This document shows, one piece after another, positions 54,815 to 56,520 of a stretch of DNA of 64,000 bases; the first letter of the stretch is position 1, and every line of letters begins with the position of its first letter. The stretch lies in the NCBI RefSeq assembly GCF_988243305.1, contig NZ_OZ547136.1, one strand, 5' to 3'. The notes below the pieces were generated by a model, which had not been told where the DNA came from, did not search any database, and worked only from the letters and a program-made list of their open reading frames with translations. A program made the translations under genes and the position numbers.

Positions 54815-56479
54815 ATGTTAAAACGTATCAAAATTGTGACCAGCTTACTGCTGGTTTTGGCCGTTTTTGGCCTTTTACAACTGACATCAGGCGGTCTGTT
54901 CTTTAATGCCTTAAAGAATGACAAAGAAAATTTCACTGTTTTACAAACCATTCGCCAGCAGCAATCCACGCTGAATGGCAGCTGGGTCGCGTTGTTGCAG
55001 ACGCGTAACACCCTCAACCGCGCGGGTATCCGCTACATGATGGATCAGAATAATATTGGTAGCGGTTCAACCGTTGCTGAGCTGATGCAGAGTGCCAGTA
55101 TTTCGCTGAAACAGGCGGAAAAAAACTGGGCGGATTACGAAGCGTTGCCGCGTGACCCGCATCAGAGCACCGCCGCAGCGGCAGAGATCAAACGTAATTA
55201 CGATATTTATCACAATGCGCTGGCGGAGCTGATCCAACTGTTAGGTGCAGGCAAAATCAACGAGTTCTTTGATCAGCCAACCCAGGGATATCAGGACGGT
55301 TTCGAGAAGCAGTATGTGGCTTACATGGAGCAAAACGATCGGCTCTATGATATCGCCGTCAGCGATAATAATGCCTCCTACAGCCAGGCGATGTGGATCC
55401 TGGTGGGCGTGATGATCGTCGTACTGGCAGTCATCTTCGCCGTCTGGTTCGGTATTAAAGCCTCGTTGGTAGCGCCAATGAATCGCCTGATTGACAGCAT
55501 TCGTCATATTGCAGGCGGCGATCTGGTGAAACCGATTGAGGTGGATGGCTCTAATGAGATGGGGCAACTGGCAGAGAGTTTGCGCCATATGCAGGGAGAG
55601 CTGATGCGAACCGTCGGTGATGTGCGCAACGGGGCCAATGCCATCTATAGCGGTGCCAGCGAAATCGCCACCGGCAATAACGATCTCTCTTCGCGCACCG
55701 AGCAACAGGCCGCTTCGCTGGAAGAGACGGCAGCCAGCATGGAGCAACTGACCGCAACGGTGAAACAGAACGCCGAGAATGCGCGTCAGGCCAGCCATCT
55801 GGCGTTAAGTGCTTCTGAAACGGCGCAACGCGGCGGCAAAGTGGTGGATAACGTAGTACAGACCATGCGCGATATCTCCACCAGTTCGCAGAAAATCGCC
55901 GATATTATCAGCGTAATTGACGGCATTGCCTTCCAGACCAATATTCTGGCTTTGAACGCGGCGGTTGAGGCTGCGCGTGCGGGTGAGCAAGGGCGCGGTT
56001 TTGCGGTGGTCGCGGGAGAAGTGCGTAATCTGGCCCAGCGCAGCGCCCAGGCGGCTCGTGAAATTAAAAGCCTGATTGAAGACTCGGTGGGGAAAGTGGA
56101 TGTTGGCTCTACGCTGGTCGAAAGCGCCGGGGAAACAATGGCGGAGATTGTCAGTGCCGTGACCCGCGTGACGGACATTATGGGCGAAATTGCTTCTGCT
56201 TCTGATGAGCAGAGCCGTGGTATCGATCAGGTTGGATTAGCGGTTGCTGAGATGGACCGGGTAACTCAACAGAACGCCGCGCTGGTGGAAGAATCTGCCG
56301 CCGCCGCTGCCGCGCTGGAAGAGCAGGCCAGTCGCCTGACCGAAGCTGTGGCAGTGTTCCGGATTCAGCAACAGCAGCAACAGCAGCGTGAAACATCGGC
56401 TGTAGTAAAAACCGTGACGCCAGCTACGCCGCGTAAAATGGCCGTGGCAGATAGCGGCGAGAACTGGGAAACGTTTTAA
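54815..56479 (+). CDS. tsr: Methyl-accepting chemotaxis protein I (serine chemoreceptor)
   Basis: 554-aa ORF; periplasmic ligand domain, HAMP, highly conserved MCP signalling domain and C-terminal NWETF pentapeptide. Confidence 0.93.
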
Positions 56480-56486
56480 TCGCCAT

Positions 56487-56520
56487 AAAAATGCCCGATA
56501 AGCAAAATGTTATCGGGCAT
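56487..56520 (-). terminator. Hairpin between convergent tsr and lgoT, probable lgoT terminator
   Basis: Perfect 10-bp inverted repeat atgcccgata...tatcgggcat with a T-run on the minus strand. Confidence 0.4.

Follow-up and report, generated by a model that had tools for sequence, protein, structure and literature searches.

tsr and its surroundings

The window, meaning the whole 64,000-nucleotide stretch of DNA analyzed here, is ordinary E. coli chromosome; over 20 kb of it, the best match is 99.6% identical. Positions 54815–56479 (+ strand) hold tsr, the gene for the serine chemoreceptor (methyl-accepting chemotaxis protein I), as an ORF of 554 aa plus stop. Pfam domains in the product are TarH (residues 1–176, 7.6e-55), HAMP (217–263, 2.1e-12), and MCPsignal (327–484, 2.3e-62). 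With K-12 Tsr the protein shares 99% identity, and the gene order hpaR-tsr-lgoT is that of annotated genomes, with lgoT next to tsr in K-12 as well; by identity and gene neighborhood, this is the orthologue of K-12 tsr. Besides the repeat considered below, the substitutions from K-12 to window Tsr are E92Q, R116H, H178Y, A538T, and E548G (window numbering). R116H, in the periplasmic ligand-binding domain, was seen in the window only among four Tsr proteins aligned.

The last five residues, 550–554 (56462–56476, + strand), are NWETF, in agreement with the receptor pentapeptide motif xZxxZ, with aromatic residues at positions 2 and 5 (PMC7390727). Domain content, orthology, and this ending together identify the product as a pentapeptide-bearing methyl-accepting chemotaxis protein. 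CheR, with an affinity of about 2 uM, and CheB both bind to NWETF and are thereby concentrated in the neighborhood of the methylation sites (PMC7390727; see also PMC10561060). In K-12 Tsr the tether point is R516, and a flexible chain of 30 residues is counted from I517 (PMC10561060). With the same boundary, the flexible C-terminal tether of the window protein is I517–E549, 33 residues (56363–56461, + strand). Its disorder is taken from the literature, where both PMC7390727 and PMC10561060 cite EPR work on Tar for it.

Between the convergent tsr and lgoT is a hairpin with an 11-bp stem (56491–56520, not assigned to a strand), found by consensus scan only. Because its T run is on the – strand only, it looks like a terminator for lgoT; perhaps it serves both genes. 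lgoT is found downstream of tsr in the window, K-12, and most other strains, and is replaced there by TRAP transporter permease genes in LF82, APEC E18006, BEN2908, EC26, and Eco23-2678. In strains 500111 and 13P477T its annotation is that of a pseudogene, interrupted by an internal stop. In E. coli PCN061, tsr is without its 5' end and lgoT is truncated, each bordered by an IS1A copy, and the pair lies between two IS1 elements.

tsr also has a second repeat, upstream of the glutamine run, at 56295–56313. It has a 6-bp period (CTGCCG, 3.2 copies, 84% matches) and encodes AAAAAA, residues 495–500. This adjoins the site of a 33-bp in-frame deletion in E. coli strain 500111, by which the second methylation helix loses codons 488–498 (window numbering), in a gene that the annotation treats as intact (543 aa). 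The deletion abuts a GCC/GCT-rich alanine run, and includes the residue corresponding to methylation site E493 of K-12 Tsr.

The glutamine run and its length alleles

The run of interest is Q518–Q524, encoded by 21 bp of CAG and CAA codons at 56366–56386 (+ strand; cagcaacagcagcaacagcag, a single occurrence in the window). It was recognized in the original prediction as QQQQQQQ at 56343–56390, inside a 554-aa tsr ORF, which is borne out. It is in frame, with ...TEAVAVFRI before it and RETSAVVK...NWETF after it. The last receptor helix ends just before the run, which forms the start of the tether bearing NWETF. The run had been placed in that tether, correctly, and also “just before” the C-terminal tail, which needs amending: it is the first part of the tail, 25 residues upstream of the pentapeptide. 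At the DNA level the best description is a perfect 9-bp period, CAGCAACAG, with 2.4 copies and 100% matches over 56366–56387 (score 44, Tandem Repeats Finder); a triplet period fits less well, with only 78% matches by the same program. Two identical units at 56366–56374 and 56375–56383 (+ strand) thus stand head to tail, followed by a partial unit, CAG, at 56384–56386. Tsr as a whole is 7.8% glutamine, for which about 9e-6 runs of seven or more would be expected, and none of 20,000 composition-preserving shuffles contained one; the run is therefore not a chance product of composition. An opposite-strand gene was also considered at this position and rejected, as the reverse frame reads LLLLLLL with no supported ORF.

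The tsr gene of K-12 MG1655, 1,656 nt long, has CAGCAACAGCAG, or four glutamines, at this position, in a protein of 551 aa. The original prediction was right in giving K-12 a protein of 551 aa with a shorter run, and the difference in length consists of these three codons only; aligned directly, the two runs are clearly unequal, 4 Q in K-12 vs. 7 Q in the window. HS and LF82 (a B2 strain) have three full units plus CAG, giving 10 Q and a protein of 557 aa. The K-12, window, and HS/LF82 alleles accordingly differ by exact multiples of CAGCAACAG, with 4, 7, and 10 codons in 9-bp steps, and the tethers they encode are 30, 33, and 36 residues long, respectively.

The frequencies of these alleles were surveyed in 5,426 complete RefSeq E. 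coli genomes, with the region matched in 5,382. The 7-codon form was found in 4,058 of these (75%), the K-12 4-codon form in 1,211 (22.5%), and the 10-codon form in 73 (1.4%), in a collection skewed to clinical lineages and laboratory K-12 derivatives (about a quarter of sampled 4-Q rows were laboratory strains). About 40 genomes have an interrupted form of unchanged length, QQEQQRQ; in one of them, strain N96, whose Tsr is 554 aa, the segment is CAG CAA GAG CAG CAA CGC CAG. Together these four classes account for all 5,382 genomes, with length changing in whole-unit steps. Counts were taken from BLAST identity and coverage bands, so that a hidden 6-codon allele is possible within the 7-codon band, with an upper bound of about 2.4% based on 124 sampled rows, all 124 of which had the exact 7-codon span.

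Three queries were used for these counts. An 87-nt query centered on the 7-codon allele matched 4,058 genomes at ≥95% identity, and 45 of 45 sampled rows were ungapped. With a 64-nt blastn query made of the 10-codon run and 17-nt invariant flanks, 73 genomes matched at ≥95% with full coverage, and exactly 4,058 fell in the 80–90% band expected for a 9-bp gap, in independent agreement with the 87-nt query. For the 4-codon run, a 46-nt blastn query with the same flanks had 5,114 full-coverage matches, which after subtraction of 3,903 gapped 7-codon ones leaves 1,211; its 76 partial matches represent the 10-codon genomes. The divergent class of about 40 falls in the 90–95% band of the 87-nt query, is matched partially by the 64-nt one, and was unmatched by one longer megablast query. 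Counting with 78–96-nt megablast queries was abandoned as confounded: partial alignments at 100% identity, along with what were probably joined pieces, inflated the bands, and the way in which each pair of alleles aligns was made plain by local BLAST of fetched loci.

Direction and recurrence of length change

Species-representative genomes were scanned for T[E/Q]AVAVFRI, and the tails of the resulting 101 loci were translated and their codons aligned; the comparison is without the nearest outgroups, as E. albertii, E. fergusonii, and S. enterica subsp. enterica were not among the loci returned. Between FRI and R[E/D], the seven residues QQEQQ[R/K]A are found in Salmonella enterica subsp. arizonae and diarizonae, and also in Citrobacter koseri, C. 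amalonaticus, and C. sedlakii, Enterobacter, Leclercia, and others. At the position of the run, QQ[A/T]QQRQ is found in two divergent Escherichia genomes. Measured from the equivalent of I517 to the residue before the pentapeptide, the tether is 33 residues long in 54 of 92 related receptor tails ending in a pentapeptide, with a range of 30–38. Since the sister genera have seven residues here and a 33-residue tether is the commonest, the 7-codon length can be taken as ancestral, and from this it follows that the K-12 4-Q run is a derived contraction of 9 bp and the HS/LF82 10-Q run a gain of one unit. What is derived within E. coli is the pure-glutamine composition.

Two other tails from this group may be mentioned. 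Escherichia whittamii has a nine-residue QQTQQQQQQ, encoded by CAG CAG ACG and then CAACAGCAG twice; this sister species seems to have a pure-Q tandem repeat of its own. Strain SCPM-O-B-8794, titled E. coli, has a Tsr tail (QQAQQRQHEALPVV...) that resembles that of Escherichia sp. E1V33 and is unlike that of E. coli; the genome may in fact be that of a member of a cryptic Escherichia clade.

Sixteen further tsr loci, selected so that every length class was represented, were fetched, and a neighbor-joining tree of 20 alleles was built from full genes, rooted on N96, with the repeat and one unrelated deletion masked. Length states are scattered over this tree. By parsimony, at least seven changes are needed with a 7-codon root, and nine with a 4- or 10-codon root; the strains were picked to include minority alleles and are a non-random set, so “at least seven” is not a rate, and recombination may distort a tree of a single 1.6-kb gene. 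Several pairs of alleles are nearly identical apart from the repeat. HS (10 codons) differs from O111 RM9322 (7 codons) at 2 of 1,611 sites and from 101EVA (4 codons) at 7, and Eco23-2678 (10) differs from BEN2908 (4) at 4. 2014C-3338 (10) and 13P477T (4) differ at 7 of the 1,611 sites and have in common a CAT (His) codon in the last full unit. The same CAG-to-CAT change (Q to H) is present in three lengths of run, as QQHQ in 13P477T, QQQQQHQ in 2017.01.04CC, and QQQQQQQQHQ in 2014C-3338, and it serves as a marker, a sign that length has changed on a recognizable background. As near-identical tsr haplotypes carry different lengths, length has changed repeatedly, and on the 20-allele tree it did so on independent haplotype backgrounds. 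The most likely mechanism would be replication slippage.

The history that we favor, and hold to be very probable as a whole, is that of a 9-bp in-frame repeat with a majority allele of ancestral length, gaining and losing units by slippage, with near-neutral effect. It would begin with an older interrupted segment, of which QQEQQRQ (about 40 genomes) and the QQEQQRA of sister genera may be representatives, becoming pure CAG/CAA in the E. coli lineage. This purification would have created two identical adjacent 9-mers; three base substitutions suffice to derive them from an N96-type segment, a route that we infer. Slippage, or unequal exchange between units, could then repeatedly remove one unit (the K-12 state, 4 Q with 30 tether residues) or add one (the state of HS and LF82, 10 Q with 36 tether residues), the frame being kept each time. 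A change in length would be expected to shift slightly the reach of tethered CheR or CheB over the methylation sites.

Several other explanations were weighed against this one. In the original prediction, the window run was suggested to be a small expansion from a short ancestral run like that of K-12. The window allele is indeed 9 bp (three glutamines) longer than that of K-12, so the location of the run and the difference from K-12 both hold, but the direction of change does not: the 7-codon form is that of three-quarters of genomes (4,058 of 5,382), all sister genera examined have a homologous segment of seven residues, the 33-residue tether is the commonest in the family, and parsimony prefers a 7-codon root (7 vs. 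9 changes). Expansion in the window is thus highly improbable. Still less credence can be given to the run length being a sequencing or assembly artefact, as the identical 21-bp run occurs in 4,058 independent complete genomes and the same C-terminal 74 residues are in the construct of PDB 3ZX6. More serious, if unlikely, is the idea that each length arose just once and was spread among tsr backgrounds by homologous recombination. E. coli does recombine, the tsr tree departs from obvious lineage groupings, and ST131, Nissle, and ST648 share one identical tsr allele. Against this, different lengths are carried by haplotypes only 2–7 of 1,611 sites apart, and alleles of 4, 7, and 10 codons alike have the CAT marker in their last unit; spread by recombination would, in four or more backgrounds, need very short conversion tracts centered on the repeat.

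The remaining alternative is that the length alleles are under selection, with 30-, 33-, and 36-residue tethers tuning the speed and evenness of CheR/CheB modification and so the kinetics of serine adaptation. Consistent with this, in Tar, tethers of different length give measurably different CheR concentration profiles over the methylation sites (PMC10561060), recurrence of the three alleles is seen across several haplotypes, and the tether is tightly conserved at about 33 residues across genera, suggesting that length matters. However, the Tar constructs differed by 5–12 residues, rather than 3 as here; the sampled survey rows had no ecological or host association; a neutral mutable repeat predicts recurrence equally well; and chemotaxis work has K-12, whose tether is the shortest, as its standard strain. 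Selection is accordingly a somewhat weaker candidate than spread by recombination, and we are just as doubtful of the related proposal that the 9-bp repeat regenerates a natural 30/33/36 tether series that measurably retunes CheR/CheB reach to the five methylation sites, so that lineages, among them K-12 with the shortest tether of its family, differ in the kinetics of serine adaptation.

Tether reach and known systems

Our preferred reading, of a near-neutral repeat changing by slippage, can be set beside published work on Tar. With Tar chains of 22, 29, 34, and 46 residues, the position of the tethered-CheR peak shifts linearly, by 0.128 ± 0.048 nm per residue (PMC10561060). If this slope applies to Tsr, it suggests a shift in reach of about 0.4 nm per unit of three residues, and the functional effect of the length alleles is probably small and near-neutral. 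A literature search for data on Tsr length alleles themselves found none. Compared with the K-12 textbook tether, that of three-quarters of E. coli genomes is three residues longer, as is the length most often found in related genera, and the natural 30/33/36-residue series could be used to test the tethered-particle model of CheR without engineered linkers. For genome annotation there is little consequence, because the window carries the usual tsr allele of E. coli.

The 7-Q allele is already known, being annotated as tsr in thousands of RefSeq genomes. It is also in public structural records, since PDB 3ZX6, an engineered chimera (HAMP-Tsr fusion), has a C-terminal 74 residues identical to those of the window, QQQQQQQ included. 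PDB 6S1K has the K-12 form, and 1QU7 ends at QQQ520. Full-text literature searches turned up no relevant account of repeat or VNTR polymorphism in tsr from earlier work, which does not prove its absence, and no paper was found listing this repeat as a typing locus.

Two kinds of repeat with more dramatic effects were considered and rejected. A phase-variable on/off switch does not fit, as the 9-bp unit is within the coding region and all alleles are in frame and end in NWETF; a contingency locus of this kind would have a long array, and only 1.3 to 3.3 units are present in any allele seen. Nor is this an aggregation-prone polyQ or prion-like domain, for which tens of glutamines are needed and at most 10 were found in the 5,382 genomes. 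The run is, rather, an ordinary low-copy in-frame tandem-repeat polymorphism, in a linker called disordered from the literature.

Among known systems, the closest is K-12 Tsr itself (551 aa, the chain in PDB 6S1K), which resembles the window protein in domain order, NWETF ending, and position next to lgoT, and differs from it in having one 9-bp unit fewer, with 4 rather than 7 Q and a 30- rather than 33-residue tether. The C-terminal linker of Tar (34 residues) is, like that of Tsr, an unstructured tether ending in NWETF, in which changes in length move the CheR peak (PMC10561060), but it belongs to another receptor and is without a glutamine repeat, and the other lengths tested (22, 29, and 46) are 5–12 residues from wild type, whereas the steps between natural Tsr alleles are of 3 or 6. 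In-frame VNTRs of the MLVA type share with the tsr repeat a perfect short repeat, alleles differing by whole units, and changes on different backgrounds. The copy number of the tsr repeat is very low in comparison (1.3, 2.3, or 3.3 units), and it is therefore probably far less mutable than the loci used for typing.
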